Assembly: GCA_964187785.1 (NCBI GenBank)
Contig: OZ076409.1
Span: forward strand, 70,496,001 to 70,560,000
Reading direction: 5' to 3'
Source of the DNA: Amphiscolops sp. MND2022
Lineage: Eukaryota
Length of the DNA stretch: 64,000 bases
Each line of letters begins with the position of its first letter. Positions within the stretch are counted from its first letter, which is position 1. Below are positions 174 to 64,000 of this stretch, piece by piece. The translations under genes and the position numbers were made by a program. The notes below the pieces were generated by a model. That model ran no database searches, was not told the DNA's origin, and worked only from the letters and a program-made list of their open reading frames with translations.

Positions 174-203
174 CGGGGGGGTAACCCCAACTTTTTTCTT
201 GGA

Positions 204-30244: not shown

Positions 30245-32211
30245 GTGCGTGGGGGAAACCCCAACAAATATATTGGAGGATTCGGGTAGGGTCCTGAATC
30301 CGATTTTAACTCTAATAGCTATCGATAGGAAATCTTGCAAAAATTTCGGGATCTCGTGATCTAACCATAGGATTTTAAAGTTGGAGCGGCCCCCACCAGA
30401 TTTTCCGAAAATTAGCGCCCCCCACCGGGTTCCATACCCCGGAAAATTTTTTTCTGGCCACACGGGCGACCGTTAGGGGGTCATTTTAGGGGTAAAATTC
30501 ATATTGGGCCACATAACTTTTTTTCTGTTGATTTAAAATTTTGGAACCCTGCTAAAAGTTTCTTGACCGTGTTGCAAGGGCTCCGGAGGTCCAAACCAAA
30601 TTTTTCTATCTTGAAGCTATCTCCAAGTACCCCCCCGCTCAAACCGTTATTTTTCCGGAAACGCAGGTTTTTGACCCGGAAGGAGTCGTCTGAGCGCGGG
30701 GTCGTTAGGTGATGTATTGGGGACGGCCTTGAGACGAAGTGGGGGACATGTAGTTTGCCAACCTCAGTTTACCCCCCGGACGGGAAATGACCGTTATATG
30801 AGCGGGAAAATTGCCCCCCTCCACGTTTAACCGCTATTTCCGGTGTGAAGGAGTGGGAGTAGCGCGTCGGGTGCCATATATCAAAAGTAGGTTTAGACAA
30901 GGATCTATCGGAAACATGTGGTTTGGGACCCCCTGGACCAACCCGTTAGCAGGAAATGGGGCTTCCGGCCCGTTTTTTTACGGTTAAAAACGGAAAATGG
31001 GCATTGAGGGGTAAATATCTCGTGAACGCGTGGAGCTACGGTGTCCTTCACTACTACAAGGTTTCATACCCATGATATGGTGCCTTCAGGGGGGCAAACA
31101 GATTTCCGCTATCTATCACCGTTACGGACTTGGCCCCCCAGCCGAACCGTTAAGTGACCGGAAATGTCATATTTTGAGCCCAAAGGGTCGGTCCCAGCCA
31201 GGGAACGTTAGGTAACTTATTGTAGTACTCATTGAGACGAGTTGGGGGACATAGTTTCAGTCACCCCCCGTTACCCCTTAAGACCGGAAATGACCGTTAT
31301 GTGAGTAAATTTGCCGTTTTTGTCCTATTTGAAGGGCATTTAGATGCGGAAGGAGTGGTAATAGGTGCTTGGACACTATATGAGGTAAGGAAGGATATGA
31401 GGCGAGCATTCGGAAATAACCGTTATGTTGACCCCAAAAGTACCCCTGGTACCGTAAACGACCGGAAATGGTCAAATTTTCTGTTTATAGGGTACAAATG
31501 TTTGGTATTTTGTAGATAAAAGTACCTATTAGGTGTTTCGACGGTCTGCAGTAGTGAACATAGTCATGAAACCTTGTGGGGGGTAACGGTATATAGCACC
31601 GGAAGTCCAAACCGTTGGAGACAGGATAGGTTTTTTGGTTTTAAAATGTCTTTCGGCGTACTTTTGTCGACTATTAAGGACTACTTTTAAAAATTAAAGT
31701 TTTTCCATATAGTTTTAGAGACTCCGAAACCTCAACCAACATAACCGTTACCTCATGATAGCCTTTCAAGTTGGCCTGGTGTCAACTTGGAAGGGCTATC
31801 CTTCAAAAATCGTCAATCAAGTGTGTTTTTGGGTATGTTTGTATCATTTTAGAATCAAATAGAGCTTCAAGAAAAGTTTGCCAACGACAAAAACTATGTC
31901 GTGATGATTCCGTTATTAGAATAATAGTTAGCAAATTGTTGAGAAAATTGATTTTTTCCATATAAAATGTGTCCTAATTGCCAGGAAACCTATTTAACTA
32001 ACAAATGGTATTGATTGGAATGTATGTAACAGAGTTATAAAAGTTCAAATTGATTATTACGTTTCATTATGGAAGCTGAAACGTAATATTTTAATTAACG
32101 TCAACGCCACACACTTTACATCAACGCCCACCGTCTGTGGGCATGCCGAGGCATGCCCTTCGACGACGTATGGCAAATCCCTTCTAACGACGCCCGTACA
32201 TCCCGGGCTAG
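30245..32211 (+). mobile_element. One A-family unit (1967 bp)
   Basis: Collinear with other A units; flanked by D-like and E units at CTAGGTG junctions. Confidence 0.7.
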
Positions 32212-43700: not shown

Positions 43701-46700
43701 TCACCCCCCGTTACCCCTTAAGACCGGAAATGACCGTTATGTGAGTAAATTTGCCGTTTTTGTCCTATTTGAAGGGCATTTAGATGCGGAAGGAGTGGTA
43801 ATAGGTGCTTGGACACTATATGAGGTAAGGGAGGATATGAGGCGAGCATTCGGAAATAACCGTTATGTTGACCCCAAAGTCCCCCTGGTACCGTAAACGA
43901 CCGGAAATGGTCAAATTTTCTGTTTATATGGTACAAATGTTTGGTATTTTGTAGATAAAAGTATCTATTAGGTGTTTCGACGGTCTGCAGTAGTGAACAT
44001 AGTCATGAAACCTTGTGGGGGGTAACGGTATATAGCACCGGAAGTCCAAACCGTTGGAGACAGGATAGGTTTTTTGGTTTTAAAATGTCTTTCGGCGTAC
44101 TTTTGTCGACTATTAAGGACTACTTTTAAAAATTAAAGTTTTTCCATATAGTTTTAGAGACTCCGAAACCTCAACCAACATAACCGTTACCTCATGATAG
44201 CCTTTCAAGTTGGCCTGGTGTCAACTTGGAAGGGCTATCCTTCAAAAATCGTCAATCAAGTGTGTTTTTGGGTATGTTTGTATCATTTTAGAATCCAATA
44301 GAGCTTCAAGAAAAGTTTGCCAACGACAAAAACGATGTCGTGATGATTCCGTTATTAGAATAATAGTTAGCAAATTGTTGAGAAAATTGATTTTTTCCAT
44401 ATAAAATGTGTCCTAATTGCCAGGAAACCTATTTAACTAACAAATGGTATTGATTGGAATGTATGTAACAGAGTTATAAAAGTTCAAATTGATTATTACG
44501 TTTCATTATGGAAGCTGAAACGTAATATTTTAGTTTAATTAACGTCAACGCCACACACTTTACATCAACGCCCACCGTCTGTGGGCATGCCGAGGCATGC
44601 CCTTCGACGACGTATGGCAAATCCCTTCTAACGACGCCCGTACATCCCGGGCTAGGTGCGGGGGGGAAACCCCAACAAAATTTTTGGAGGATTCGGGTAG
44701 GGTCCTGAATCCGAGTTCAGTGCTGCCAGCTTTCGTTAAGAAAATTTGGATAGGATTCGGGATCTCGTGATCTAACCATAGGATTTTAAAGTTGGAGCGG
44801 CCCCCACCAGATTTTCCGAAAATTAGCGCCCCCCACCGGGTTCCATACCCCGGAAAATTTTTTTCTGGCCACACGGGCGACCGTTAGGGGGTCATTTTAG
44901 GGGTAAAATTCATATTGGGCCACATAACTTTTTTTCTGTTGATTTAAAACTTTGGGACCCTGCTAAAAGTTTCTTGACCGTGTTGCAGGGGCCCCGGAGG
45001 TCCAAACCAAATTTTTCTATCTTGAAGCTATCTCCAAGTACCCCCCCGCCCAAAACGTTATTTTTCCGGAAACGCAGGTTTTTGACCCGGAAGGAGTCGT
45101 CGGAGCGCGGGGTCGTTAGGTGATGTATTGGGGACGGCCTTGAGACGAAGTGGGGGACATGCAGTTTGCCAACCCCAGTTTACCCCCCGGACGGGAAATG
45201 ACCGTTATATGAGCGGGAAAAATGCCCCCCTCCACGTTTTACCGCTATTTCCGGTGTGAAGGAGTGGGAGTAGCGCGTCGGGTGCCATATATCAAAAGTA
45301 GGTTTAAACAAGGAACTATCGGAAACATGTGGTTTGGGACCCCCTGGACCAACCCGTTAGCGGGAAATGGGACTTCCGCCTCCTTTTTTTACGGTTAAAA
45401 ACGGAAAATGGGCATTGAGGGGTAAATATCTCGTGAACGCGTGGAGCTACGGTGTCCTTCACTACTACAAGGTTTCATACCCATGATATGGTGCCTTCAG
45501 GGGGGCAAACAGATTTCCGCTATCTATCACCGTTACGGACTTGGCCCCCCAGCCTAACCGTTAAGTGACCGGAAATGTCATATTTTGAACCCAAAGGGTC
45601 GATCCTAGCCGGGCAACGTTAGGTAACAAATTGTAGTACTCATTGAGACGAGTTGGGGGATCTAGTTTCAGTCACCCCCCGTTACCCCTTGAGACCGGAA
45701 ATGACCGTTATGTGAGTAGAATTGCAATTTTTATACCTTTTGAAGGGCATTTAGGTGCGGAAGGAATGGTAATAGGTGCTTGGACACTATATGATGTAAT
45801 GGAGGTCGTGAGGAGAGCATTCGGAAGTAACCGTTACGTTGACCCCAAAGTCCCCCTGGTACCGTTAACAACCGGAAATGGCCAAATTTTGTGTTTATAG
45901 GGTACAAATGTTTGGTATTTTATGGATAAAAGTACCTGGAAGGTGTTTTAAAGGCCTCCAGAAGTGAACATAGTCATGAAACTTTGTGGGGGGTAACGGT
46001 ATATAGCACCGGAAGTCCAAACCGTTAGTTACAGAATAGGTTTTTTGGTTTCAAAATGTCTTTAGGCGTAGTTTTGTGGGTTGAATCGTCATAATATCAA
46101 CTAATACGGACTTTTTTCGGAAATAAAATTTTTTCACATTAGTTTCAGGGACCTCCAATGTTTCAGTCAACATAACCGTTACATTTTGATAGCCTTTCAA
46201 GTTGGCCTGGTGTCAACTTGGAAGGGCTATCCTTCTAAAATCGTTAATCAAGAGTGTTTTCGGGTAGGTGTATGTTGCATTAGTACCAATTAGAGCTTCA
46301 TCAACAGTTTGCCAACGGCAAAAACGATGTCGTGATAATTCCGTTATAACAATATTAATTAACAAATTGTTTCCAAAGTTGATTTTTTTCCATTCGAAAT
46401 GTGTCCCAATGCCACCAAATTGAATAAAATAATAAATGGTATTGACTAAAACTAAATAACATTGAAAAAGAAGCTCAACATTTTTAATAGGTCTCATTAT
46501 GGAAGCTGAAACCTCACGTTTTAACTTAATTAACGTCAACGCCACATACTTTACATCAACGCCCACCGTCTGTGGGCATGCCGAGGCATGCCCTTCGACG
46601 ACGTATACCAAATACATATATATCTACACCCACCCGCGGTAGCAGCTAGGTGCGGGGGGGTAACCCCAACAAATATATTGGAGGATTCGGGTAGGGTCCT

Positions 46701-48622
46701 GAATCCGATTTTAACTCTAATAGCTATCGATAGGAAATCTTGCAAAAATTTCGGGATCTCGTGATCTAACCATAGGATTTTAAAGTTGGAGCGGCCCCCA
46801 CCAGATTTTCCAAAATTATTCGCCCCCCACCGGGTTCCAGCGTGATTGAAATATTTTGTCGGGGTACACGGGCGACCGTTAGGGGTCATTTTGGGGGTAA
46901 AATTTATATAATGTCGCATAACTTTTTTCCTGTTGGATTAAAACTTTGGGACCCTGCTAAAAGTTTCTTGACCGTGTTGCGGGGGCTCCGGAGGTCCAAA
47001 CCAAATTTTTCTATCTTGAAGCTATCTCCAAGTACCCCCCCGCCCAAACCGTTATTTTTCCGGAAACGCAGGTTTTTGACCCGGAAGGAGTCGTCTGAGC
47101 GCGGGGTCGTTAGGTGATGTATTGGGGACGGCTTCGAGACGAAGCGGGGGACGTGTAGTTTGCCGACCCCAGTTTACCCCCCGGACGGGAAATGACCGTT
47201 ATTTGAGCGGGAAAAATGTCCCCCTCCACGTTTTACCGCTATTTCCGGTGTGAAGGAGTGGGAGTAGCGCGTCGGGTGTTATATAACAAAAGTAGGTTTA
47301 GACAAGGACCTATCGGAAACATGTAGTTTGGGACCCTCTGGACCAACCCGTTAGCGGGAAATGGCGCTTCCGCTTCCTTTTTTTACTGCTAAAACCGTAA
47401 AATGGGCATTGAGGGGTAAATATCTCGTGAACGCGTGGAGCAATCGTGTCCATCACTACTACAAGGTTTCATACCCATGATATGGTGCCTTCAGGGGGGC
47501 AAACAGATTTCCGCTATCTATCACCGTTACCGACTTGGCCCCCCAGCCTAACCGCTATGTGACCGGAAATGTCACTTTTTGAGCCCAAAGGGTCGGTCCC
47601 AGCCGGGGAACGTTAGGTAACTTATTGTAGTACTCAATGAGACGAGTTGGGGGATATAGTTTCAGTCACCCCCCGTTACCCCTTGGGACCGGAAATGACC
47701 GTTATGTGGGTAAAATTGCAATTTTTATACTTTTTCAAGTGTATTTAGGTGCGGAAGGAGTGGTAATAGGTGCTTGGACACTATATGAGGTAAGGGAGGA
47801 CGTGAGGCGAGCATTCGGAAATAACCGCTATGTTGACCCTAAAGTCCCCCTGGTACCGTAAACGACCGGAAATGGTCAAATTTTGTGTCTATTGGGTACA
47901 AATGTTTAGTATTTTGTAGATAAAAGTATCTATTAGGTGTTTCGACGGCCTGCAATAGTGAACATAGTCATGAAACCTTGTGGGGGGTAACGGGGTATAT
48001 AGCACCGGAAGTCCAAACCGTTGGACACAGGATAGGTTTTTGGTTTGAAAATGTCTTTCGGCGTACTTTTGTCGACTATTATGGACTATTATTAAAAATT
48101 AAAGTTTTTCCATATAGTTTCAGAGACTCCGAAATCTCAACCAACATAACCGTTACACTTTGATAGCCTTTCAAGTTGGCCTGGTGTCAACTTGGAAGCG
48201 CTATCCTTCTGAAATCGTTAATCAATAGTGTTTTTGGGTAGGTATATATTGCATTAGTACCAATTAGAGCTTCATCAACAGTGTATCAACGACAAAAACT
48301 ATGCCGTCATGATTCCGTTATTAGAATCATAGTGAGCAAATAGTTGAAAAAAATGGTTTTTTCCATACAAAATGTGTCCTAAATGCCAGGAAACCTATTT
48401 ACCTAACAAATGGTATTAATTGGAATGTATGTAACAGATTTATAAAAGTTCAAATTGAATATTACATTTCATTATGGAAGCTGAAACGTTATATTTTAGT
48501 TTGATTAACGTCCACGCCACATACTTTACATCAACGCCCACCGTCTGTGGGCATGCCGAGGCATGCCCTTCGACGACATATACCAAATACATACCTAACG
48601 ACGCCCGTACATCCCGGGCTAG
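34790..48622 (+). mobile_element. Seven A-family units (1970, 1975, 1976, 1974, 1971, 1994, 1973 bp)
   Basis: Collinear A units. Those at 36760 and 38735 share a distinctive 5' variant (GATCTTAGTACCG...CCCTCAAAAACCGGG). Confidence 0.7.
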
Positions 48623-51600
48623 GTGGCCGTGTCTTTTCGACGTGCTTTTGCATTGAGGAGTGGGTAGGGCCCCGCGACGACCTAGAAGAATTGGATGCTC
48701 ACCGAAACGTGCAGAATTCTACGAGATCTCATAGTTTGAGCCATTGGATTTTTCTGAAATTTGGCATGTGGCCTGGAATTGGTGAGTAGGTAAAACGTGT
48801 AAAAGGTAATTTTTCCCAAATTCCACTGTGAGAGGAGATATGGGCAAATAACGGACCCAAAAATGGCAAAAATGCACATTTTTCAACTTTGTCAGCCAAT
48901 ATCTCTTTTCCAGGTGCCCGTAGCGTTCCGCACGTGGACATCAATATTGCTCAGCGCTGTTGGAGGAGTGCGTGGACAAATTTTGGTTTAAATCGGAGTT
49001 AAACTTGACGAGAAATTAACGGTTTTTTGGGCGTTTCCGGGGTAAATTTTTTAACGGTCCAGCTTATCTTTGCCATTTTTTCGAAAATGTACATGCCTAA
49101 AGGCCTCCCCCTGGCCGAATTTACTCCCAGCAAACCCATTTGGCCCTAAATACGGAGTTTCAGCGTTCCAGCATTCCGGGGCGGAAAGTTGTGGGACTTG
49201 GAAAAATTTCAATTTTTTTTCAAAAATTTTTTTTCCCGTTTTCCGGGCCCCCAATGAAGGGGAACGACCCCCCAACCAGTATTTTGAGTGAATTCATGTG
49301 GAAAGCCCATGTTTGGAGGAGAAAAATGCCGTTTAGCACATCTTTTTATCTTAACTTGACATTGACTTATGACGTTTTGAATGTGATGTTAGGATATATG
49401 AAGCATGTTAAAAGTTGAAGTTTTGAGTCTTTATCTCATCGGAAAACCATTGAGATACAAGCAGTTTTGCTAAAAACGATTTTCATTGTAGGTTAGCAGA
49501 GTATTAGTACACTTTGATGTCATTTGAGTATATTTTTCTTCTATATAATAACTGTTTTTATGTATTTATTCCAATTTATCTCATCTTTTAACATCAAGCA
49601 GTTGAGTACATTTCATCTCCCTTTCGGGGGAGATGAGAATGTACTCGCTAAAAACCTAATGCTATGGCGCCAATGTTTGGATGGGAAGTTTTCTATGCTT
49701 TGAAAAAAGTTATTTTTAATTACTTGATTTTTTAAAACAATAATTAACATGAAGTACATTACTTGCTCCTACTACTACCACCATACATCTCTAACGTCAA
49801 CGCCCCCTGCTTGCATCAACGCCCCATCGTCCGTGGGCATGCCGAGGCATGCCCTTCGACGACGTATGCCAAATGCCCAGTGCCACGCAGTCTTTTCCCG
49901 CTAGGTGGCCGTGTCTTTTCGACGTGCTTTTGCATCGAGGAGTGGGTAGGGCCCCGCGACGACCTAGAAGAATTGGATGCTCACCGAAACGTGCAGAATT
50001 CTACGAGATCTCATAGTTTGAGCCATACGATTTTTCTGAAACTTGGCATGTGGCCTGGAATTGGTGAGTAGGTAAAACGTGTAGGAGGTAATTTTTCCCA
50101 AATTCCATTGTGAGAGGAGATATGGGCAAATAACGGACCCAAAAATGGGGAAAATGCACTTTTTTCAAGTTTGTCAGCCAATATCTCATTTCCACGTGCC
50201 CGTAGCGTTCCGCACGTGGACATCAATATTGCTCAGCGCTGTTGGAGGAGTGCGTGGACAAATTTTGGTTTAAATCGGACTTAAACTTGACGAGAAATTA
50301 ACGGTTTTTTGGGCGTTTCCGGGGTAAATTTTTTAACGGTCCAGCTTATCTTTGCCATTTTTTCGAAAATGTACATGCCTAAAGGCCTCCCCCTGGCCGA
50401 ATTTACTCCCAGCAAACCCATTTGGCCCTAAATACGGAGTTTCAGCGTTCCAGCATTCCGGGGCGGAAAGTTGTGGGACTTGGAAAAATTTCAAAATTTT
50501 TTCAAAAATTTTTTTTCCCGTTTTCCGGGCCCCCAATGAAGGGGAACGACCCCCCAACCAGTATTTTGAGTGAATTCATGTGGAACGCCCATGTTTGGAG
50601 GAGAAAAATGCCGTTTAGCACATCTTTTTATCTTAACTTGACATTGACTTATGACGTTTTGAATGTGATGTTAGGATATATGAAGCATGTTAAAAGTTGA
50701 AGTTTTGAGTCTTTATCTCATCGGAAAACCATTGAGATACAAGCAGTTTTGCTAAAAACGATTTTCATTGTAGGTTAGCACAGTATTAGTACACTTTGAT
50801 GTCATTTGAGTATTTTTTTCTTCTATATAATAACTGTTTTTATGTATTTATTCCAATTTATCTCATCTTTTAACATCAAGCAGTTGAGTACATTTCATCT
50901 CCCTTTCGGGGGAGATGAGAATGTACTCGCTAAAAACCTAATGCTATGGCGCCAATGTTTGGATGGGAAGTTTTCTATGCTTTGAAAAAAGTTATTTTTA
51001 ATTACTTGATTTTTTAAAACAATAATTAACATGAAGTACATTACTTGCTCCTACTACTACCACCATACATCTCTAACGTCAACGCCCCCTGCTTGCATCA
51101 ACGCCCCATCGTCCGTGGGCATGCCGAGGCATGCCCTTCGACGACGTATGCCAAATGCCCAGTGCCACGCAGTCTTTCCCCGCTAGGTGGCCGTGTCTTT
51201 TCGACGTGCTTTTGCATTGAGGAGTGGGTAGGGCCCCGCGACGACCTAGAAGAATTGGATGCTCACCGAAACGTGCAGAATTCTACGAGATCTCATAGTT
51301 TGAGCCATACGATTTTTCTGAAATTTGGCATGTGGCCTGGAATTGGTGAGTAGGTAAAACGTGTAGAAGGTAATTTTTCCCAAATTCCACTGTGAGAGGA
51401 GATATGGGCAAATAACGGACCCAAAAATGGCAAAAATGCACATTTTTCAACTTTGTCAGCCAATATCTCTTTTCCAGGTGCCCGTAGCGTTCCGCACGTG
51501 GACGTCAATATTGCTCAGCGCTGTTGGAGGAGTGCGTGGACAAATTTTGGTTTGAATCGGACTGAAACTTGACGAGAAATTAACGGTTTTTTGGGCGTTT

Positions 51601-52464
51601 CCGGGGTAAATTTTTTAACGGTCCAGCTTATCTTTGCCATTTTTTCGAAAATGTACATGCCTAAAGGCCTCCCCCTGGCCGAATTTACTCCCAGCAAACC
51701 CATTTGGCCCTAAATACGGAGTTTCAGCGTTCCAGCATTCCGGGGCGGAAAGTTGTGGGACTTGGAAAAATTTCAAAATTTTTTCAAAATTTTTTTCCCG
51801 TTTTCCGGGCCCCCAATGAAGGGGAACGACCCCCCAACCAGTATTTTGAGTGAATTCATGTGGAACGCCCATGTTTGGAGGAGAAAAATGCCGTTTAGAA
51901 CATATTTTTATCTTAACTTGACATTGACTTATGACGTTTTGAATGTGATGTTAGGATATATGAAGCATGTTAAAAGTTGAAGTTTTGAGTCTTTATCTCA
52001 TCGGAAAACCATTGAGATACAAGCAGTTTTGCTAAAAACGATTTTCATTGTAGGTTAGCAGAGTATTAGTACACTTTGATGTCATTTGAGTATTTTTTTC
52101 TTCTATATAATAACTGTTTTTATGTATTTATTCCAATTTATCTCATCTTTTAACATCAAGCAGTTGAGTACATTTCATCTCCCTTTCGGGGGAGATGAGA
52201 ATGTACTCGCTAAAAACCTAATGCTATGGCGCCAATGTTTGGATGGGAAGTTTTCTATGCTTTGAAAAAAGTTATTTTTAATTACTTGATTTTTTAAAAC
52301 AATAATTAACATGAAGTACATTACTTGCTCCTACTACTACCACCATACATCTCTAACGTCAACGCCCCCTGCTTGCATCAACGCCCACCGTCCGTGGGCA
52401 TGCCGAGGCATGCCCTTCGACGACGTATGCCAAATGCCCAGTGCCACGCAGTCATTATCGCTAG
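48623..52464 (+). mobile_element. Three short-family units, subfamily B' (1282, 1282, 1278 bp)
   Basis: B-type 5' end and tail, but with a different internal block (TTGCTCAGCGCTGTTGGAGGAGTGCGTGGACAAATTT, resembling the D-like unit). Confidence 0.7.
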
Positions 52465-52840
52465 GTGGCGGGGGGCTGTCCCCAATAGAATATAGTGAGG
52501 TAGGGTAGGGTTCCCTACCGAACATTCAGTACTGAAAGACTCTTGTAGTATGAAAATTTTTCGATGTTTTGAGACCGATTTCGGATTCCACCCGTCAGAA
52601 GTTTATGATTTTTTGGCCCCCACCCAGATTTTGGGCACTGATCGCCCCCCACCAGGTTCCATACCCGTGGTTTCGTTGTGACGGGTACACGAGCGACCGT
52701 TAGGGGTCAATCAGGGGGTAAAATTTATAAAAGTGTGAATAACTTTTCCCCCCGTCGTTTTAGCAGGTCCGGTCACTAGTAAAGGTTTGTTGGGCATCAT
52801 GCAGTGGGTACGGGGGGCCAAACAAAAATTTTCTATCTTG

Positions 52841-54880
52841 CACCGTTACGGACTTGGCCCCCCGCCCAAACCGCTATTTTACCGGAAATTGCACTTTTTG
52901 ACCGGGAAGGAGTCGTCTGAGCGCGGAGTCATTTGGTAATGTTTTGTAGAGCATCTGGAGACGTGGTGGGGGACATGTAGTTTGCCGACCCCAGTTTACC
53001 CCTCGGACGGGAAATGACCGTTATGTGAGTTTCAAAAATGCCCCCCTCCAATTTTCCCCGCAATTTCCGGTGTGAAGGAGTCGGAATAGCGTGTCGAGTG
53101 CTATATATCAAAAGTAGCTTTAAACAAGGACCTATCAGAAACATGTGGTTTGGGACCCTTTGAACGGACCCGTTAGCCGGAAATAGGGTGACCGCCTCCT
53201 TTTTTTGGTGGTAAAACCGTAAAACGGGCATTAAAGTGTAATTATCTCGTGAACGCGTGGAGCAATCGTGTCCATCACTCCTACAAGGTTTCATACCCAT
53301 GACATGGTGCCTTCAGGGGGGCAAACAGATCAGCGCTATCTATCACCGTTACGGACTTTGCCCCCCAGCCTAACCGCTATATTACCGGAAATTGCCCTTT
53401 TTGACCGGGAAGGAGTCGTCTGAGAGTGGAGTCGTTAAGTAATGTTTTGTAGAGCATCTAGAGACGTGTTGGGGGACATGTAGTTTGCCGACCCCGGTTT
53501 ACCCCTCGGACGGGAAATTACCGTTATGTGAGTTTTAAAATTGGCCCCCTTCAACTTTCCCCGTTATTTCCGATGTGAAGGAGTGAGGGTAGCGCGTCGG
53601 GTGTCATATATCAAAAGTAGGTTAAGACAAGGACCAACCGGGAACATGTTGTTTGGGACCCCCTGGCCCAACCCATTAGCCGCTATTAGGGTGATCGCCT
53701 CCTTTTTTTACTGCTAAAACCGGAAAACGGGCATTGAGGGGTAAAGATCTCGTGAACGCGTGGAGCAATCGTGTCCATCACTACTACAAGGTTTCATACC
53801 CATGATACGGTGCCTTCAGGGGGGCAAACAGATTACCGCTATCTATCACCGTAACAGACTTCCCCCCCAGCCCAACCGCTATGTGACCGGAAATTGCACT
53901 TTTTGAACGGGAAGGAGTCGTCGGAGAGCGAGCTCTTTAGGTAATGTTTTGTAGAGCATCTGGATGCGTGATGGGGGACATATAATTCGTCGACCCCGGT
54001 TCACCCCTCTTACGGGAAATAACCGTAATTTGAGCTAAAATATTGAACCCCTCCATGTTTAACCGCTACTTCCGGCGTGAAGAAGTAGGATTAGTGTGTC
54101 AAGTGCCATATATCGAAAGTAGGTTCTGACAAGGACCTATATGAAACATGTAGTTTGGGACCCACCGCTCCAACCCGTTAGCCGGAAATGAGGAGATTTT
54201 GTACTTCGTTTAATGTTAAAAGGGAGAAAATGACTTTGAGGGAGAAATGTCTCGTGAACGCGTGTAGCTACGAACTCCTTCACTACTGCATGGTTTCATA
54301 CCCATGATACGGTGCCTTCAGGGGGACAAACAGATTAGCGATATCAATCACCGTTGCGGACTTGGCCCCCAGCCTAACCGCTATGTGACCAGAAATGCCA
54401 CTTTTTGACGCCCATGAGTCGGTCCCAGCCTGGCAACGGTAGGTAACTTATTGTTGTACTCATTGAGACGACATTGGGGATATAGTTTCAGTCATCCCCT
54501 TCGGACTGAATATGACCGTCATGTTGGAAAATTTAGAATTTTAGTAGTTTTTTAAGGCCATTTATGTCGGGAGAGAGCGGTAATAGGGCTTTGGACATTA
54601 AATTATGGAAGAAGTGTAGTGAGAAGTGCATTCAGAATTGATTATTACGATGACCCGGAAGTACCCCTATCATAGGAAGTTACTGAATATGGTCAATGTG
54701 TGAGTTTCAACTTAAACATTTTTTGTGAATCAGCAAAAAATGTTAGTAACTTTTTATCGCCTTCAGAACTAATAAGTTTTGTTAAATGGTGTGAAATAGC
54801 AGTATTTAATAACGGAAGTCCAACCTGTATCAGTCTATAAATACCAAATTGGTTTCAGAATAACTTTAGACGTGTTTTTG
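52841..54880 (+). repeat. ~503-bp subrepeat: three copies plus a diverged fourth
   Basis: CACCGTTACGGACTTGGCC-like anchor at 52841, 53344, 53847 and 54349. The same anchor occurs twice in the first A unit (541, 1043). Confidence 0.9.
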
Positions 54881-54949
54881 TGGATAAAATATCAAATACA
54901 GATTTGCACAATTTAAAAGATTAATATTTTCATTTGAGGTACCCTGATT

Positions 54950-55460
54950 ATAGAATATTATAGTATAGTATAGAATACAATAGTATAGAATATTATAGTA
55001 TAGAAAAATATAGTATAGAATTTTCTGTTATAGTATAGTATAGTATAGAATAGAACAGTATAGAATATTAAGATCATTATTGTTTAGTAAAGTATAGTAT
55101 AGTATAGTATAGTATAGTATAGAGTAGTATAGTATAGTATAGTGTAGTATAGAATTGTATAGTTTAGAACATTATATTACAGTACAGTATAGAATAGTAT
55201 AGTTTAGTATTGTTCAATATATTATATTATATTATTGAATAGAATATTATTGTAAATTTTAGTATAGTATAGTGTATTAAATTATATTCTATCATAGTAA
55301 AGTATAGTATAGTATTTATAGTTTATTATATTATATTATATTATACTATAGTATTGTATAGTACAGTATATTACATTAAAATATAGTACAGTATAATATA
55401 TTTTTGAATAATATACTAAAGTATAGTATAGTGTGGTATAGTTTAATATAGTATATAGTA
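54950..55460. repeat. Degenerate (AGTAT)n/(TATAG)n pentanucleotide microsatellite
   Basis: Runs such as AGTATAGTATAGTATAGTAT at 55091-55140, with AT-rich degenerate flanks. Confidence 0.95.
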
Positions 55461-55519
55461 TGCATTATGATAAAAATTTTAGTTCTCCTTGATCAAGTTT
55501 AAATTTATTTATGATTAAA

Positions 55520-56990
55520 ACCGAGGTCATTTTTGTCAATGCTTATACCTACAGCATGAAACAAGTGAATAGGCAGTTTCTAGGAGCATAGTAGCGAAAA
55601 ACATTTGGTCCTAAGTGTCATTCATGGACTAATATTTTCATTGTGTCATTAAAATCGCCTAATTCAATTCTGTTAGGAGGATTTTTGAGCATGTAAAAAT
55701 GGTTTTTAAATGCTTCTAGCATCCGATATAACCATTACAGTGAGAAAGGAAACATAATAAAGACCCCTAATTGGTTTTAGAAATTTAAAGTTCTTATAAA
55801 TTATTTTACCATTCGCCTTTTTGCAGGTTTTGATTGTTTACTTCAGACTGGTTGCATATAGCTCAGACCAATGTATCAAAATGTTGCAGAATCTGAAAAT
55901 AAATCTCATAGCCAACGATGTTGATATTTAACAATTCTCGTACATAAAGAATGTTTTAAAGGTTTTTCACTGAATGGAGCATCCGATAGAACTGTTAGAG
56001 GGAGAAAGCATATATAGAAAGAACCCTGTTGCATCTTGGAAATGTAGGAGTTTTCGCTTTGTATAGTTTCCCTTGGCTCTTTTAGTATCTCTTATAACGT
56101 ATACAAAGAGCAACAGGCATTTGTAAACACCAAAAAAGGTTTCAGAATTTTTTCTCTTTTATTGGCGGTTTTAGCAGGGTCTACACGTGCAAGTCAAAAT
56201 TATAAATTGATCATTTTGAAATAGAAATATTCATCGGATCTTGTCTACAATGATCACTTTGCAAATCGACAGACTTGTTGTCGACTGAATGAAAAATTAT
56301 TTCGTGAAACTAAATTTTTTTTAAACGAGCTTACAACATATTTCAGATATTTGGAGTTTATTTTATGTTGTTTCACATTTACTGACTGTTCACTCCCAAA
56401 AGAAAGGTGTCAGTTTTACAAAAAGTTGCTGTAAGTGCTAGTGGGTAGAGTAAAAATATTTGTTGAGGTTTAAAAAACTCTATCTAATACAAAAAGACAT
56501 TGACATTTTGATTAGTGAACTTTTTTTAAACTCCCACACTAAAAAAGCATGTTGTTGACAAGTAGAAAATTGAATTAGACATTTTTGGACGTCATAAATG
56601 ACACTGTCGTAAAATATGGGCCCAATGATACATGGAACAAGCACCAATAATCATGTAATAGAAGATATATCATATTTATCTACTATAAGACGTTACTTTT
56701 GGTGTATTTAGCATTTTGATTAAAAGTGTTTGTCTCTGTGGAACAAGTTGAAACTTGTTTGTGACCACAACTAAGGTCATATTTGTCAACTCTATAAGTA
56801 CAGTATGCAACAGGTGTATGGGAATATTATAGGACTATAAACGGAAATGGTTCGGTCTCGAGTGTTCATTCATTGACCAATGTTTTAATTGTGTCTGTAA
56901 AATGGCTTCGTTTAATTCTAATAGGAGGATTGTGGAGAATGTAAAAATGGTTGTTAATTGCTTCAAGCACCCAATAGTAACATTATTATG
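55520..56990 (+). repeat. Diverged ~230-bp direct repeat pair (~55520-55750 and ~56770-56990)
   Basis: Shared in order: AGGTCAT.TTTGTCAA, TACAG.ATG.AACA.GTG, TCATTCAT.GAC, ATTGTGTC, AATTCT..TAGGAGGATT, ATGTAAAAATGGTT.TTAA.TGCTTC.AGCA. Confidence 0.8.
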
Positions 56991-57754
56991 AGGAAGCAAA
57001 TATCAAAAAGATTCCTGCCAGGTTTCGGAAATGTAGATCTGTTCTAAATTCTTTTTCCACACGCCTAATTGCTGTTTTTTATAGTTTACTTCAAAACTGT
57101 TGTATTCAGCTCGGCAGACAAATCTGACTAAATGTTCCCCAGTCTGAAAGTATGATAGCTTACCTTCATGCATATGAATTATTTTGATTTTCAATGTTCA
57201 TATAGACACCTATGTTAAGACCGTCGTTTTTGCCTAACTCTACGTTGACTTATGTTGTTTTGAAGCTGCGATTCTGGTGTGTCAAGTTCCAAATATAGTA
57301 TGAAGCATCCAATTTTTGTGAAGCCTAAGTATGCACTCCGATGTTATCAGTGGGCCCATGATATTCGAGAACACGAATGGCACTGTTACAACTGCTACCG
57401 AAATTAATTGAGAACCAATAAGACAGTTTTCATAGGAAAAATTCTGGAATGAAGTAAACATCTCGGAATTGTGGAAATATAATTAAAAGTGATGTAAACA
57501 AAATTTAACCCATTGATGTCAATCACTATGTACACAGAACGCGTTGTGTGCGTTTCAGTAGTAAAATGAGGTTTTTCAAGAAGAAAGTCTGTTCAAGGAA
57601 TGACTATTAAACATTCTTTCGGTATTTGGTTGCATTTCTTATGTCAATTTTTGGTTCTAGTCGTTATATCGTTGTTCCAGGGCATCATTGTCGTTTTTGC
57701 TCCTCCTACGTTGACTTGCAACATCTGAAAATAAATTTGTGAATAGTTCTAATA

Positions 57755-57860
57755 TAATTATTAATTTACATACAATATATATATATATATAAGATAAAAT
57801 ATATATTATTATATTATATACTCAATTAATGTATTATGTATAAAATATATATATATTCCT
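57755..57860. repeat. AT-rich low-complexity/(TA)n tract
   Basis: ATATATATATATAT runs in almost pure A/T sequence. Confidence 0.8.
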
Positions 57861-58162
57861 TCTTTGTGAAATTAAAATATTATAATATACATAACATTCG
57901 TTGGTGTAAAATAAATCCCAGAAAAGATTTTTGAGAAGCAGACAAATACATCTGAGAAAAAAATTTTGTTGTAATGAAGTTAATGTTGCTTCTTTGTTCT
58001 AGCTAAAATATTGAATATTGTTGCATATGGTGTCATTTGAGGGACTGACTGATTTTATCATGACTTTACTTAGTATTGCTTGTTTTTTTCAGAATCACTT
58101 TATCAAGAAAATCAAGAATCATCAAACAATTGGCTACAACTTAAATTTTTTCAGAAAAAAAC

Positions 58163-58748
58163 ATGAGTCAAAACGCTGTTAATGCGAATGCGCAAAAAGT
58201 AAAGAGTAAAGAAGTTATGAAAGAAGGTGAAAAAGACATGTTCCTCACGGTGGTTCTAAAGTCAAAAAGTCTAAAGTCAGAGGTGGATTTCCAGAATAAA
58301 AAAGAATGCTATGTATTCGCAGAGAGCCTTATGGAAAGAATGAACTTGAAAGCGTCGAAAATAACGGTCGCAGCATTCAAGCAGAAATGGATATTTTTCA
58401 ATTTTGAAACAATGTAGGTTAACTTTCTTCCGAAAATTTGTTCATAAACATAATTTTTTACACGTAAAATATGATTTACAGGATGCGAAAGAATGCAGAG
58501 AATGGCTGACAAGTAACCAAGAAATACACGAAAAAAATACAATTTATGTAACCAATTTTCAAAAAACTCCTAGCATTTTCCATCAAAGTTGTAACCAAGC
58601 CTTCAAACGATCTCCTCACTTTCTTGACCCCAACCCCTCCTGCTCGACTCAACCAACCAGACAATACACTGCAAAGGACTTGAAATCACGCGATGGGCAA
58701 CTCCACCATGATATTTTCATCAAAACTAAAAGACCAAAGATGTTTTAA
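58163..58748 (+). pseudogene. Two-exon small gene (58163-58417 + 58482-58748) encoding an RRM-like protein, with an in-frame TAG at the exon junction
   Basis: A 64-nt GT..AG intron (AG|GTTAAC...TTACAG|G, 58418-58481) joins two ORFs in frame to give ...KWIFFNFETM*DAKECREWL..., an RNP1/helix-2-like pattern. AATAAA follows at 58795-58800. Fold assignment is by eye only. Confidence 0.5.
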
Positions 58749-59597
58749 CGTATCGATTCCAACTTTCACTTTAACTTTTAACTCTTTAAATTGTAATAAA
58801 AATTAATGATTTTGTTTTTTTTAGGACTGACTTGCAGTTGAGACTTTTAAAATCATAACAACTTCAATTTCAAAATCGAAAAATAATGTTAAAATATAAT
58901 TTAATGTGTTTTTTAATTTTTTTTTCATGATCCAATTTTTGTTATGATTTTAAATAAAGTCTCTCAGGTACGTGGCAACTGTGGATCCTGATGTCAGCGG
59001 GTTGTTCAACAATCAGACGTGGAATAGATGTCACAATTTCATATTTCATAATGGTAATTGATCATGATTGGATATGCACGTCAATCAAATGAAACATATG
59101 CAACAAAAAATCCTAATGACAAAGTTCTGCGAACAGGAAAGGGAGAAATATGATAAAACGAAAACACCAACTGGAATTACTTCAATTAAACCCTCATAAT
59201 TTCTTTACTTATATAACATAATTTAACGAATAATATACATTCATAATTATCTATAGCATAGGTTTGAAAATTAATAACTATTTAATGTAATGTTCAGTTA
59301 TATGACGCCTTGTTTATTTTTGCTGCGTTACTCATGAACCGGGAATAATTCCTGGTCATTAGTGATTGGAATTGTTTAATTTATCTAAATGACCTATACT
59401 TTTTTTTTTCAAATTTTTAATACGAGTTAATCAATAGTTATAAAGTTAGACTGTTAATAATTATTTGAGAAGGCCAAACTATATTTCTTATTCAAAAAAA
59501 TACATTAGCAGCGCAATTGTTATGAAGTGTTTAATAAGTATTTCAAATATGTAGTACTTAATAGAATAAATGCTTAATTGTTGAAAAGTGGTTAAAT

Positions 59598-59699
59598 TAC
59601 GGCTCATCAGGAGTTAGCTTGCTGCGTTATGCGGAAGGCCCTCCTGATGAAGCTATGTCCCCCCTTTTTTCAGTGGGTAACCTATGCCCAATTTTTTTT
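59598..59699 (+). ncRNA. Structured ~100-nt element, copy 1 (unknown class; RNA status inferred)
   Basis: TCATCAGGAG pairs with CTCCTGATGA; there is an inner stem, a second small hairpin TGGGTA..TGCCCA and a T-run. It is a GC-richer island in AT-rich DNA. Confidence 0.45.
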
Positions 59700-60503
59700 C
59701 AAGCAAAATTTTCCAGCTTTTAGATCAGTAACTTGTATTATTTTTCATTGACATTGATAATTTTTGAATATTTTGGTCATTTTTAGTCATAAACCTTTAA
59801 CCATTAAATTGTGCTCTCATTGAAGGTACTGTTGTATCATGCGTTTGCTGTTTTGAAACATCCTGACAAGTTTGATTCATTGAATGACTCCGGTCATTTC
59901 TTTTTATTTTGATAAAAAGTTTCATTGTAATAGAAATTTGGTTAGATACAACAGTTATTAATTTACCTTTTAAAAAATGTAATATTCCATATAGGGTTTA
60001 TAAGTTTTATAAAAATATATGGTATATGGATTTTACTGATTTTTGCAAACATGAAATTCTCACGAGCCCATGTGAATTTTCTGACAATGCCTGACAAGAA
60101 TTTTCACAATGCCATTGAAGCAATTGAAGAAAATGGTTATTTTGATATTTTCTCATTTCAGACATAAACTACATTCAACATACCTACAGTTGAAATAATA
60201 TCGAACACTTATAGAAAACCAATACATTTTTTCATCAATTAAAATCCTTATCTTTCGCTTATCAAGAAAAACACCGAAAATTTGAAATTTACTCGAAAAT
60301 TTGCAGCAAACAGCGTTTTCATACAGTGCGCAATTACAATTTTTAGCTCCAAGTGTAATAACTATTTTTGTTAGAAAGTTTAATAACTTATCTACAATAA
60401 ACTAGTTGAAATCCTTTGGAAATCTATTGCGTATATCAAATTCCTAGTCACGCGTTTCGTTAAATAACAAAGATTCACACGGATAAATATTTTGTTGGAA
60501 AAA

Positions 60504-60606
60504 TACGGCTCATCAGAAGTTAGCTTGCGGCGTTATGCTGAAGGCCCTTCTGATGATGCTATGTCCCCCCCATTTTTCGTGGGTAACCTATGCCCAATTT
60601 TTTTTT
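60504..60606 (+). ncRNA. Structured ~100-nt element, copy 2
   Basis: TCATCAGAAG pairs with CTTCTGATGA (compensatory relative to copy 1); 906 bp downstream of copy 1, with unrelated flanks. Confidence 0.45.
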
Positions 60607-61437
60607 GGTCAAGAATTTGCGTATCCTAGTTTTAAAACATACATTTTCATCAATAACAAGTAAGTAATTTTATCATTGTTTACATAAATTAATATTGAGA
60701 TTTGTAAAAAAATGTTACATATCAACCTTGTTATATCTGTTGCAATTATCTGATACAAAACCCCAAAAAATTTTCGGCGAATACAAACTACAAGAAATAG
60801 CAAATATTTCAGTTTTAAAGTTCTTATGTCAAAAATTTTGCATGATGGTAATGTCATTACTTCAAAAAAATTTAACATTTTCATTGAAATAGATTTAAAA
60901 AATTTTTTGGCAACAGATATATCATTTTGTTTTCTTCTGTGTACCTATTATTGTTATAAAAATGTAATCGGATAATTGTAAATCAAATAATTATTTCGAA
61001 CTAATGTCTTTTCTAATATAATTTAAAGCACCATTTATGGTTCAAATCTCACTCAATCGTTTACCTCAAATTTTTGATAGAGAATCATTTTGTTTGGTAC
61101 AAAGTCGAATTCGTGCAATCGAGAATCATCAATGCGATTTCGGTAACTCAATCGTTTCAGTATGTTATAATGAGAAAATTTTCATCGGATGCGTTATTAC
61201 TCGAGAAAATTATTTTTCAACAAAATAAACTACTTTCAGATGTTGAATTTTTAGTTTATTCTTTAATTTGTGTATTTTTAAACCTTTCCACATCTAAAAA
61301 TTCCAACGAATTTTTGCGTTCAAAAAAATGCGCTTCGATGTTTCCGTCCTTATTTTCGTTTTCGGATTACTTTAATTTATTGAGATAACATCTTCAATAC
61401 ATTTTTTTCATTTTCGGTATTATTACTTCAGGTGGTC

Positions 61438-64000
61438 ATGCCTAAAAAGAAAAGAGTTGTCAAAAAGGATCCTAATACTGGACGGTTCCTTCCAAAAGTC
61501 GAAAATACAGATGATTGTGTTTTTACCACACAGTGCCAAGAAGTAGTTTCTACTGAAGATTCAACTGGTAGCCAAGTTGTTCTAGACGTTGGCGACATCG
61601 CGAATTCAAATTTGGAATCTTCATCAGAAAAAACAAATGGAGAAAGTAAAAAGATGCATCCATTTACTGAATATAACGTGACACAAGACAGCGTTTCAAT
61701 TCAAAATGCAATGGACAACTTTGTTACAATCGGGAAAACGATGAAGAGAATTGTGAGTGTTAATTTGACAAGACTTTACATTACCGCTGGAGTTTTCCTG
61801 TGTTTGAAAACATCTATTGATAATGTTTGTGAAAATTGTTACCGAGAATCAACAACTGGTTATCCTTTACATTTCCAATCAGTTCATTCATCTGCACTAA
61901 GAAAACGTAAATTTTGCAGAGACTTTCATGAAAACCAAGAAGTAGTTCTGTGTGACGACTGTTTGCTCTATTATAACAAACCATGTTGGAATCATGCGTG
62001 GCCGTCGGTTTTGTGCACACTTTTTTTCAGTGGTGACAAATATGGATGCAATGGCCGATACTTTTTTACTTTGTTCCCAAAATCTTTTACAGACTCTTGG
62101 GCAAAGGTGTCTTGTCGTTTTGGATATTGTAATCTGGAAACTTTACCTTTGTTTGAAGATTATACTTTAATCAAAAAACAATTCGATCAATTAGTAATGT
62201 CACACAGAGGCCATGATTTGAAACATAACTTAAATAATTTTAGTTTCCCCTTCATTAAATGTCCAGTTGGATGTAATACCCTCATTAATGAAACTGGCAA
62301 AATTTCTTTCGTGCACTTATTAAATTACCTTTTCCCCAATTTCAAATCTTTTGGAGCAAACAAAAATTACCTGCGAAGCATGCGAGAAGACTGGTTGAAT
62401 TCTACGTTACATTTGGATACATTCTTAAGTTCACCATGTTTATCCGTCGACGAAAATGGTTTAGCTCTGGTTACTTGTTACATGCACAACAAAAAGATTG
62501 ACAAACAAATTGTTCACATGGCTCCTTCTTGTTTCGGAAATTTATTTCACGTACAGGTGGATCGTTTAGCTCCAATGGCAACAAAAGTCAGAGGTTACTT
62601 ACCAGCAAAAGTTGGAGAATTTAGTCATGGATTTACAATTTCAACAAGTTTGGGCGGTCAGTTCGGCATAAGTTGTTTACAGCTGACAAATAAACGATGT
62701 TTCAATGTGAAAAGTGACTACTTATTACCAACTTTAGAACCCGTTATTTATGCCAATCGACAAGATGTTCGTAATGTAGTTAATTTACTTTACAATGACC
62801 ATTCGTTGAATATGGATTTTATCGAATACTTGAAAAGTAGTACCTGCACTCTTGGTAGAGAGGTGTTAGAATCATTCAATGAATCCAGTAACTCGCTTTC
62901 CATGTTCGCAATGCTCTGCGTAAAGAAGTATTTGGAAGAAAATAATGATCTCAAAAAGCCAATACCATCTTCATTGCTAAATTGTCATAACATGAACAAA
63001 ACAGGTCTCCAACCTTTTCTTGCAGCTCGGAAGCACTTTAATAGAAGAGTTTCTTTATTTCTTTTGATTTCTTGGTTCATTAATTATGAATATTTTGGAT
63101 TCATTTGCTTAGTCGACAGTAGAATCTCCAGTTTGCTAATTCAACAATTGAACGGTCTTCACCGGACAAAAAGTTACTGCAATTCATCAACTCTGAACTC
63201 TTTGGAAACAAGTTTCCGTGAATCGTTCAATTTGGAAGATAGTAGTTCGATCCATTTAGATTTCATGACTCGAATACTTGACACGATAGACGGTTGTAAA
63301 GTTATTTATTGCCCTGAACGAAAAATCATCAATATGTTAGAGTTTCACAGTTTTGTTGATAATTCTGAATCAGTTAACGTTGTCTGTATCATCAACCAAG
63401 AAGATAAGTCTTTGAGAAACTTTGGAATTCCTGAAATTATTCAAATTTACAACAAGCAGTTTCAATTAGTTTATTTATTTGCGACAATTAATGATCCTAT
63501 CCTGATGAGGTACGGTAATGAATTCTTTGAATGGTGGTGTTTCGATTCAAAAAATAACCTTGTGTTAGATGCAACTACCATGTGTAACTGCAAATGTAAT
63601 TTCGAAAGGAGTTGGAAAATTTTACTTTATTTGGGTGATTACACAGACATAAAACCCTCTGTGATGTCGAGTATCTTTGGGAGTGGGCAAGATAAAATCA
63701 AATGTGGGTATCATGAAAAACTCTTATCTACTGATCTTAGTGATTCAACCTATAAATGCTCCATTACCAATTGTCAACGGAAGTCCGCGTACAGATGTCC
63801 TGAAACGAATTGTTTTACTAGTGTCTGTAACAGGCATTTGAAAAGTTTAGAAGACAACAAATTGCATTTTTTGAAATGTTCCGAAAATTTTGAAAATAAT
63901 GATAGCTACGAAACTTTGGATATGCATCGAGTTATTGAAGATGACGAAAATCAACTTGGAATTGATTATGTATTAGAAGGCATACAAGAAACCGGTTTTG
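61438..64000 (+). CDS. Large Cys/His-rich protein, N-terminal 854 codons, open at window edge; possibly the N-terminal region of a Helitron-like Rep/helicase
   Basis: Translated by hand: MPKKKRVVKKDPNTGRFLP...GIDYVLEGIQETGF with no stop in 2563 nt of AT-rich DNA. NLS-like start; CENC/CDDC pair, HAWPS, KCPVGC, and CGYH...CSITNC...RCPETNC...CNRH clusters. Confidence is for coding status; the product call is much weaker. Confidence 0.9.
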   Translation, partial: MPKKKRVVKKDPNTGRFLPKVENTDDCVFTTQCQEVVSTEDSTGSQVVLDVGDIANSNLESSSEKTNGESKKMHPFTEYNVTQDSVSIQNAMDNFVTIGKTMKRIVSVNLTRLYITAGVFLCLKTSIDNVCENCYRESTTGYPLHFQSVHSSALRKRKFCRDFHENQEVVLCDDCLLYYNKPCWNHAWPSVLCTLFFSGDKYGCNGRYFFTLFPKSFTDSWAKVSCRFGYCNLETLPLFEDYTLIKKQFDQLVMSHRGHDLKHNLNNFSFPFIKCPVGCNTLINETGKISFVHLLNYLFPNFKSFGANKNYLRSMREDWLNSTLHLDTFLSSPCLSVDENGLALVTCYMHNKKIDKQIVHMAPSCFGNLFHVQVDRLAPMATKVRGYLPAKVGEFSHGFTISTSLGGQFGISCLQLTNKRCFNVKSDYLLPTLEPVIYANRQDVRNVVNLLYNDHSLNMDFIEYLKSSTCTLGREVLESFNESSNSLSMFAMLCVKKYLEENNDLKKPIPSSLLNCHNMNKTGLQPFLAARKHFNRRVSLFLLISWFINYEYFGFICLVDSRISSLLIQQLNGLHRTKSYCNSSTLNSLETSFRESFNLEDSSSIHLDFMTRILDTIDGCKVIYCPERKIINMLEFHSFVDNSESVNVVCIINQEDKSLRNFGIPEIIQIYNKQFQLVYLFATINDPILMRYGNEFFEWWCFDSKNNLVLDATTMCNCKCNFERSWKILLYLGDYTDIKPSVMSSIFGSGQDKIKCGYHEKLLSTDLSDSTYKCSITNCQRKSAYRCPETNCFTSVCNRHLKSLEDNKLHFLKCSENFENNDSYETLDMHRVIEDDENQLGIDYVLEGIQETGF

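Follow-up and report, generated by a model that had tools for sequence, protein, structure and literature searches.

A Rep-helicase transposase gene of a young Helitron-like element that likely inserts single copies at CTAG/GTG joints of polarised arrays

Overview

A stretch of 64,000 nucleotides from Amphiscolops sp. MND2022 (contig OZ076409.1, positions 70,496,001 to 70,560,000; G000:C1:70496001-70560000 in our numbering), here called the window, ends within a long reading frame that encodes a Rep-helicase (RepHel) transposase. The gene belongs to unit E, a young 20.2-kb Helitron-like element (HLE) that forms one unit of a head-to-tail array of diverse relatives. The likely action of this transposase is to nick DNA at CTAG^GTG and to insert copies one at a time at the CTAG/GTG joints between resident units, building polarised mixed arrays—a reading that we consider well founded, short of certain. 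The window was analysed within the 1.07-Gb assembly to which it belongs.

Helitrons are thought to insert with little beyond a dinucleotide preference, and their arrays have been ascribed to concatemers. Unit E points instead to a eukaryotic Rep-helicase element under a tetranucleotide rule like that of IS91, with a targeting of its own joints that we infer from the arrays. If true, this would provide a new route to megabase-scale tandem DNA made of whole elements of many families, a strategy of harmless landing, and a natural site-specific integrase for cargo of 1-20 kb. We advance a wider proposal only tentatively, with expectations a little short of even: that the family is an undescribed major HLE clade (Rep, PIF1 and an SLX1-like GIY-YIG domain, with an OB-fold partner), site-specific for its own CTAG/GTG joints, in which at least nine autonomous families and dozens of passengers share a self-made safe harbour, here a polarised block of 6 Mb that may serve as centromeric or pericentromeric DNA. 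Because young, apparently intact copies of unit E exist, the mechanism is testable; and because end annotation based on TC/CTRR or on terminal inverted repeats (TIRs) would overlook the family, its members may go unnoticed in many genomes. The GIY-YIG exon, the OB-fold gene, the IS91-like target rule and the distance from the HLE1 and HLE2 types all go beyond the original prediction, which had been made from the letters of the window.

The RepHel gene

The features of the gene are as follows; coordinates beyond the window are given in locus L009, for which window position = L009 position + 60000.

61438..64000, plus strand: first 854 codons of the 2,189-codon RepHel transposase frame, a Cys/His-rich N-terminal region
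61828..62517, plus strand: Cys/His motifs C131/C134, C172/C175, C275-C279 and C347/H350/H360, putative Zn ligands in 110 aligned relatives
63703..63837, plus strand: near-invariant cluster C756, H759, C774, C779, C787, C792, C797 and H800, a putative two-Zn module
L009 8071-8602, plus strand: predicted GIY-YIG exon (PF01541, E 2e-4, just under the cut-off)

The frame is open from the ATG at 61438 to the window edge, 854 codons, as the original prediction had stated. Counted from stop to edge it spans 872 aa; no other frame in the window exceeds 156 aa, and the longest frame in 200 base shuffles of window 55001-64000 was 166 aa. The other details claimed for this part were likewise recovered: PKKKRV, a putative nuclear localisation signal, just after the first Met, TTCAG at 61427-61431, and the Cys motifs CENC (61828), CDDC (61951), CPVGC (62260) and the cluster at 63703-63837; these Cys motifs are conserved in the family. 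Among the 110 aligned relatives, conservation is about 0.5 for C131/C134, about 0.6 for C172/C175 and 0.76-0.91 for C275/G278/C279. It rises to 0.95-0.98 for C347/H350/H360, a set missing from the earlier description, and is 0.89-1.00 for the C756-H800 cluster, in which every residue bar H800 is invariant in alignment A4.

Taken alone, residues 1-854 gave no Pfam match under E 0.2 and no Atlas match, and the corresponding part of the family profile gave no PDB match under E 9. The guess that the protein resembles Helitron-like Rep/PIF1 proteins is borne out past position 64000, where the same frame runs on to a stop at L009 8007. It holds Helitron_like_N (residues 1047-1151, E 1.8e-8) and PIF1 (residues 1743-1906, E 4.6e-9, with Walker A at 1775), both by Pfam. 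The HUH Rep region occupies residues 1056-1321, with motif I at 1056, HYH at 1146-1148 and YLNKY at 1317-1321; motif I, HUH and YxxxY, together with the helicase motifs, align over 24 rows. On sequence grounds, the Y2 HUH Rep upstream of PIF1, the lack of target duplication and the non-autonomous derivatives that share the ends place unit E in the Helitron superfamily.

The frame had been called intronless. This holds for the 854 codons and for all 2,189, not for the whole gene, in which one intron is predicted at the 3′ end: the RepHel stop overlaps a GTAAGT donor, and a predicted 67-nt intron (L009 8004-8070) would join the frame in phase to the GIY-YIG exon. An intron lies at the identical place and phase in four other families (194, 144, 170 and 192 nt), so that position and phase are kept in 5/5 families with a locatable motif; in a sixth family the motif lies outside the stretch read. 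The peptide predicted from splicing closely resembles two of the three intronless families compared. For the GIY-YIG domain, SLX1 nucleases are the best match of the family profile (E 3e-9). One column of its alignment holds Arg in 14/28 rows and Ala in the unit E family. This Arg is catalytic in GIY-YIG enzymes, and because it is absent, the domain is probably dispensable for cutting in the unit E family.

Unit E and its copies

Unit E was delimited by cutting from joint to joint, and comprises the following features besides the RepHel gene.

52465..64000 and beyond (G000:C1:70548465-70568671), plus strand: unit E, autonomous element, 20,207 bp
52461..52525, plus strand: CTAG/GTG joint followed by the 5′ terminus of unit E, where two hairpins are predicted, the latter bearing the GGGTAGGG-type motif
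52773..54409, plus strand: internal subrepeats of about 500 bp, also found in units A (about 80%) and D (93-96%, first 1.5 kb)
54949..55455, plus strand: TATAG microsatellite
L010 2187-3497, plus strand: ORF2, 436 aa, predicted tandem OB fold, RPA/CST-like
L010 4668-4671, plus strand: CTAG that closes the 3′ end after a hairpin, followed by the GTG of a B unit

ORF2 is predicted to be an RPA-like OB-fold partner gene. Its first 338 residues fold with pLDDT 86 when 22 aligned rows are supplied, versus 32 for the sequence alone, and the best Foldseek matches of the model are RPA (E 2e-4, probability 0.96, TM only 0.25) and CST. The Atlas search gave a weak pointer to OB folds, and the PDB sequence search gave nothing under E 0.4.

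Ten near-identical copies of unit E (about 99.8%) lie on five contigs, which argues for a recent family. The gene is therefore multicopy and no single-copy host protein, as expected of the mobile element that had been proposed; no reverse transcriptase (RT) or DDE domain and no separate long terminal repeat (LTR) or TIR boundary was seen for it. A copy on C2 is 99.955% identical from end to end, with identical ends and different neighbours, and eight copies compared over 5.5 kb show 99.73-99.98% identity. Nine of the ten begin at a joint, and for eight of them the other end is a joint as well; the remaining copies are one shortened at its 3′ side and one internal fragment. Six retain the full frame and both ends and appear intact. 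At least six different pairs of neighbours surround the copies, and where three copies have neighbour types in common, flank identity is 84-94% in five of the six comparisons. The non-autonomous unit D has both ends of unit E, with 93-96% identity in its first 1.5 kb and 83.5% in its final 85 bp.

The original prediction had cast the protein as driver of the array. The gene does sit in a unit with the array's own ends, and these shared ends make it a candidate driver, the RepHel family being one of at least nine autonomous types in the arrays.

Several smaller observations concern unit E itself. A 1-kb internal duplication (68% identical; L009 8237-10000 and L010 up to 2531) has left two degenerate pieces alongside the intact ones, a second GIY-YIG and a first part of ORF2. 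Within the last 10 bases (L010 4662-4671), one base is A, G or T among eight copies (including L079, L083, L085, L087, L089, C2 102.55 Mb and C4 77.32 Mb) that otherwise agree at 99.8%, which suggests that array ends convert one another or that strand exchange extends into the end. The 5′ arm contains an 84-codon Lys-rich frame (window 58163-58417) and dispersed direct repeats of 91% (59594-59699/60500-60605) and 72% (55462-55901/56711-57152). A 250-bp stretch (window 57340-57600) is common, as non-coding DNA, to three other long families.

Unit ends and the target rule

Across the array, units begin with GTG and end with CTAG; more broadly, the end types share CT(A/G)G. A hairpin motif of the GGG(T/G)AGGG type (GGGTAGGG-type) lies within 70 nt of the start in 46/48 start types. 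The 3′ ends fall into unrelated types, and CT(A/G)G is their sole common part. Of 234 distinct starts, 231 are preceded by one of three tetranucleotides: CTAG (211), CTGG (13) or CTTG (7).

Two comparisons of filled and empty sites define what is inserted. A solo copy within a short repeat reads CTAG/GTG...CTAG/AT, where two empty versions of the repeat have CTAG^AT; a unit nested in a B unit reads CTTG/GTG...CTAG/GT, and six B units have the empty CTTG^GT. By these two comparisons, there is no target duplication and the last CTAG is element-borne. Further solo copies have CTTG or CTCG in front and CTAG at the end. The sites thus show insertion 3′ of CT(A/T)G with nothing duplicated; a target duplication of 4 bp was weighed and discarded in view of the filled and empty sites and the flanks of solo copies. 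At free ends of the first 3′ end type, AT or TT comes next in 17/17 (one being a likely chance match), and at 19 free ends of the second type the next bases are AT (13), CT (1) or TA (5).

Seven free 3′ ends have no 5′ end within 8.5 kb, and one (L160) looked like a chance match. One-ended transposition was not adopted for them, since the library of units is incomplete. The repeat that hosts the solo insertion (L167, L168, L169, L160) looks tRNA- or SINE (short interspersed element)-like by eye. At C8 25.69 Mb (L103, L104), two starts stand 13 nt of B sequence apart in one B unit, at CTTG^GT and CTGG^GT. Frames resembling those of an LTR retroelement lie 3′ of the CTAG of a solo autonomous copy (G000:C5:24.26 Mb; L028, L030).

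Composition and origin of the arrays

The window is occupied up to unit E by one array.

171..52464, plus strand: head-to-tail mixed array of 30 complete non-autonomous units, each with a GTG start, a GGCATGCC hairpin region and a CTAG end

These units comprise 18 A (1.97 kb), seven C, two B and one each of F, G and H. When 118 kb around the frame was cut at the 56 CTAGGTG sites that follow a hairpin motif, units of 1.3-3.5 kb in ten clusters were obtained, plus unit E. All 57 CTAGGTG joints in this 118 kb lie on the strand of the RepHel frame and none on the opposite strand, in keeping with the claim that frame and array have the same polarity. The array begins near C1 70.455 Mb, after a host CTAG; plus-strand joints occur in 14/14 samples from C1 71.2-75.9 Mb and in 0/5 from 76.6 Mb on. 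By sampling, the array extends over about 6 Mb on C1, if it is continuous between samples. Smaller arrays are present on many contigs. Counts of a 28-mer from the common 3′ end and of A-unit starts came to 4,241 and 817. No telomeric repeat was seen at the array joints.

The counts point to a preference for joints. One end type is followed by GTG in 737/754 counted copies and by A or T in 17 (ends with G but not GTG next being left uncounted), and a hairpin-less end type by G in 173/192 and by another base in 19. Among 19 divergent autonomous loci (N-terminal identity 23-39%), joints flank 16 on both sides; of the other three, one continues into an inverted duplicate close to a gap in the assembly and two are not in arrays. 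In 290 kb of loci, CTAG(A/G/T)T has a density of about 910 per Mb, so that host sites outnumber joints by roughly a hundredfold, as extrapolated. In 165.5 kb of array, no unit was found at any of the 48 opposite-strand CTAG(A/G/T)T sites, and three same-strand internal starts were found, in two composite units.

The main alternative is that unit E is an ordinary, non-targeted Helitron-like transposon, whose rolling-circle concatemers were mixed by unequal crossing over and gene conversion while dispersed copies were purged. Tandem Helitron arrays and head-to-tail joints are indeed known and put down to concatemers (PMC5876387, PMC11934779). Single-family runs, regional clustering and swapped 3′ tails fit such an origin, as does the nearest relative being adjacent for 4/41 A units. 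Concatemers, however, predict identical neighbours, and adjacent A units are on average 90.6% identical (30 pairs) versus 89.9% for non-adjacent ones (526 pairs; p = 0.54); none of the 30 adjacent pairs reaches 99%, whereas eight non-adjacent or cross-contig pairs do, and the 99.9% pairs are on different contigs. With no greater likeness between neighbouring units than between distant ones, concatemers are disfavoured and insertion of single units at joints is favoured. The 20-kb copies of unit E, 99.8% alike, also stand singly between different neighbours, and families with unrelated 3′ ends meet at one exact joint. We therefore regard the concatemer explanation as unlikely, although it retains some weight.

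A less likely explanation still, and one we doubt strongly, is that excised circles enter the arrays by host homologous recombination in the 3′ hairpin tract or the subrepeats, or following cleavage by GIY-YIG, and not by Rep strand transfer. Most units do share about 60 bp of near-identical subterminal sequence, at which tails are swapped, and the GIY-YIG domain is kept across the family, half of the aligned rows retaining the conserved Arg. Units that lack the tract occupy the same joints, however, and solo copies in unrelated DNA obey the CTNG rule with neither homology nor duplication; the Arg, moreover, is missing in the unit E family despite its ten recent copies. It is hardly credible, and already largely refuted, that a host gene or unrelated RT/DDE element beside a satellite accounts for the frame, or an assembly artefact for the array: the silence of Pfam, PDB and Atlas on the first 854 residues would suit it, but the near-identical copies on five contigs, the Rep and PIF1 domains, the exact shared ends, the heterogeneous units and the presence of arrays on many contigs speak against it.

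The case for targeting by the transposase thus rests on single young units between varying neighbours, on unrelated ends at one joint and on plentiful sites left unused. Several points weigh against it. At free ends of the second 3′ type, the five TA cases depart from the rule (one flank being repeated), one solo start is preceded by GTCC, and some insertions lie at internal or host sites. Families cluster by region in the C1 array, with runs of the hairpin-less type at 73.46-73.88 Mb, and single-family runs are common, so local copying contributes. The sixth flank comparison between two unit E copies gave 99.5% identity, so some copying of several units at once may occur, and the swapped 3′ tails and the three-state end base point to recombination or conversion inside arrays. 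The counts of joint preference take no account of purifying selection against dispersed copies. Nine metagenome contigs (1-17 kb) with distant relatives showed no recognisable joints or ends. Finally, all the array evidence comes from one assembly, insertion is deduced from sequence and the splice is predicted.

Two further observations were made on the arrays. The hairpin-less 1.28-kb units (G000:C1:73.46-73.88 Mb) cluster around autonomous elements of 2,376 aa that have their 3′ end, and at C1:23.977-23.980 Mb two arrays meet in opposite orientation.

Proposed mechanism

The steps proposed for insertion by the transposase follow HUH, IS91 and Helraiser precedent. RepHel would bind the 5′ hairpin and nick the top strand 3′ of CTNG; PIF1 would unwind the unit while ORF2 coats the displaced strand. 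A second cut after the terminal CTAG would allow a circle to close, its joint reading CTAG/GTG. A resident unit whose 5′ end stands behind CTAG would serve RepHel as preferred target, because it presents the same substrate as the circle joint. Each insertion would remake one joint and add one more, so that arrays would draw further insertions from all families, and an occasional insertion at a host CTNG^(A/G/T)T site would start a new array. The GIY-YIG domain may trim flaps or resolve the strand-transfer branch. As the guide for targeting, the 5′ side of the joint is favoured, since it is the conserved side and since runs form without the 3′ hairpin.

Comparison with known systems

Published systems are compared here as far as the accessible parts of the cited sources describe them. 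Unit E does not belong to HLE1, lacks the HLE2 marks looked for, resembles IS91 at its ends and is likely self-targeting. HLE1 elements have 5′ TC and insert between A and T, and HLE2 elements have TIRs and insert at T^T (PMC11417382); circles and cleavage of their joint are described for Helraiser (PMC5876387). Like HLE1/Helitron1, including Helraiser, unit E combines an HUH-Y2 Rep and PIF1 in one protein, ends in CTAG, has a 3′ subterminal hairpin (as do most units here) and an RPA-like gene downstream of RepHel, and shows head-to-tail joints without target duplication (PMC11417382, PMC5876387). The CTAG and CTGG ends of the units agree with the CTRR expected of HLE1. Unlike HLE1, it starts with GTG and not TC, its target is CTNG^DT and not A^T, the hairpin begins 54-73 nt before the terminal CTAG (and is absent in some families), and it has a GIY-YIG tail. 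Its RepHel scores E 1e-8/1e-9 in Pfam, versus 1e-58/1e-70 for the HLE1-type proteins of the same genome; the Helraiser structure 7lcc was not matched by the single unit E protein and was matched at 2e-14 with the family profile. In trees, the family lies on a separate side from the HLE1-type rows, of which there were only two.

The long N-terminus, 5′ hairpin, C-terminal nuclease and, in some relatives, OTU domain recall HLE2/Helitron2/Helentron elements; the Chlamydomonas Helitron2 inserts after TTTT, that is, 3′ of a tetranucleotide (PMC3627910). Unit E differs from HLE2 in that DUF6570 is absent, the nuclease is GIY-YIG and not an AP endonuclease, and the target is not T^T. Visual inspection of 48 types of start and 50 types of end revealed no TIRs, a dedicated TIR search not being made. 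HelenSM92 of Sphagnum, an HLE2 family with a captured GIY-YIG, TIRs and TT sites (PMC11417382), is set apart from unit E by its description and not by sequence. Unclassified clusters are reported by HELIANO (PMC11417382).

IS91 has the target CTTG/GTTC (T fixed in second position), CTCG at its far end and no duplication (PMC13181058). The tetranucleotide target, the like tetranucleotide at the far end, the lack of duplication and the subterminal palindromes are shared with unit E, the assignment of the origin to one end of the unit being a reading of ours. IS91 is prokaryotic, with one or two small genes and without helicase, OB-fold gene or GIY-YIG, and multi-family arrays do not appear in the portion of that source available (PMC13181058); unit E, in contrast, has a fused PIF1 and a predicted spliceosomal intron.

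A third Helitron clade, from Paramecium, has been proposed to insert site-specifically in telomeric repeats (PMC13085455). It resembles the present family in its absolute polarity, a 3′ tetranucleotide (there CCAA) resembling the target, a multiplicity of alternative 3′ ends and the clustering of its non-autonomous copies, and differs in that its target is the host telomeric repeat and not its own joint, and in its 9-10 kb open reading frames. The accessible text mentions no GIY-YIG for that clade, which is set apart here by description (PMC13085455). Helitron-derived centromeric or subtelomeric clusters or tandem arrays are also described in Meloidogyne (PMC13404089), Hydractinia (PMC11934779) and Xenopus (PMC12001565). 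The Meloidogyne blocks embed autonomous Helitron copies, as the arrays here do (PMC13404089). All these blocks are of HLE1 or HLE2 type, interleaved with satellites or locally amplified, with arm-specific clades in Hydractinia (PMC11934779), and the accessible text does not describe them as whole elements of many families at one fixed joint. Replitrons have a Rep without helicase and short terminal direct repeats (PMC10288648), unlike unit E with its helicase.

The literature searched, with subscription papers and Repbase Reports outside its scope, describes neither a clade that combines Rep, PIF1 and GIY-YIG with GTG...CTAG ends nor Helitron arrays targeted at joints; HELIANO sets and Repbase entries may already contain members of the family.

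Relatives and trees

A search with the Rep region gave 55 proteins at 90% clustering and, among 50% clusters, 675, 368 and 136 representatives at E 1e-3, 1e-10 and 1e-30, nearly all unnamed. Several close matches have the same or almost the same sequence as families of this genome, so the breadth of species rests on the distant ones. By Pfam, GIY-YIG is present in 14/20 distant relatives and in 6/7 others, and DUF6570 in none of 27 database relatives, nor in the unit E RepHel. A profile of the family's own tail matches 73/97 long relatives, partly by construction, and some relatives carry an OTU domain. Metagenome data gave nine loci with relatives, of which five have the GIY-YIG tail and one an ORF2 homologue; two minus-strand matches to the ORF2 profile were discarded, as the profile held three unrelated rows. 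IMG/VR yielded no relative.

The genome also has RepHel frames of HLE1 type and of DUF6570-bearing HLE2 type (L200-L212), some with JAB or OTU; DUF6570 occurs in 9/13 of these reference frames. Quick, unrooted trees were built for Rep (68 rows) and helicase (42 rows), with two HLE1-type and six to eight HLE2-type frames of this genome as references (three of the 13 loci were left out), labels being assigned here from Pfam scores and DUF6570, and family rows chosen by likeness to the query. In both trees, a branch with SH-aLRT 99 separates the GIY-YIG family from the HLE1-type and HLE2-type rows. HLE2 is weakly or not monophyletic in them, long branches meet, and rooting could put the family inside HLE2. 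The trees support, at the level of sequence, a family distant from HLE1 and HLE2, and not a rooted third clade.

Additional frames in the 2,376-aa families

Extra frames of 214-292 aa with GDS/GASN and DxxH-like motifs occur in the 2,376-aa families (L020 2135-3013, L022 5219-5878). They recall SGNH hydrolases; Pfam gives DUF459 only, at E 0.003. Further elements with these frames lie at C1 24.0 Mb, C6 15.57 Mb and C8 25.68 Mb.

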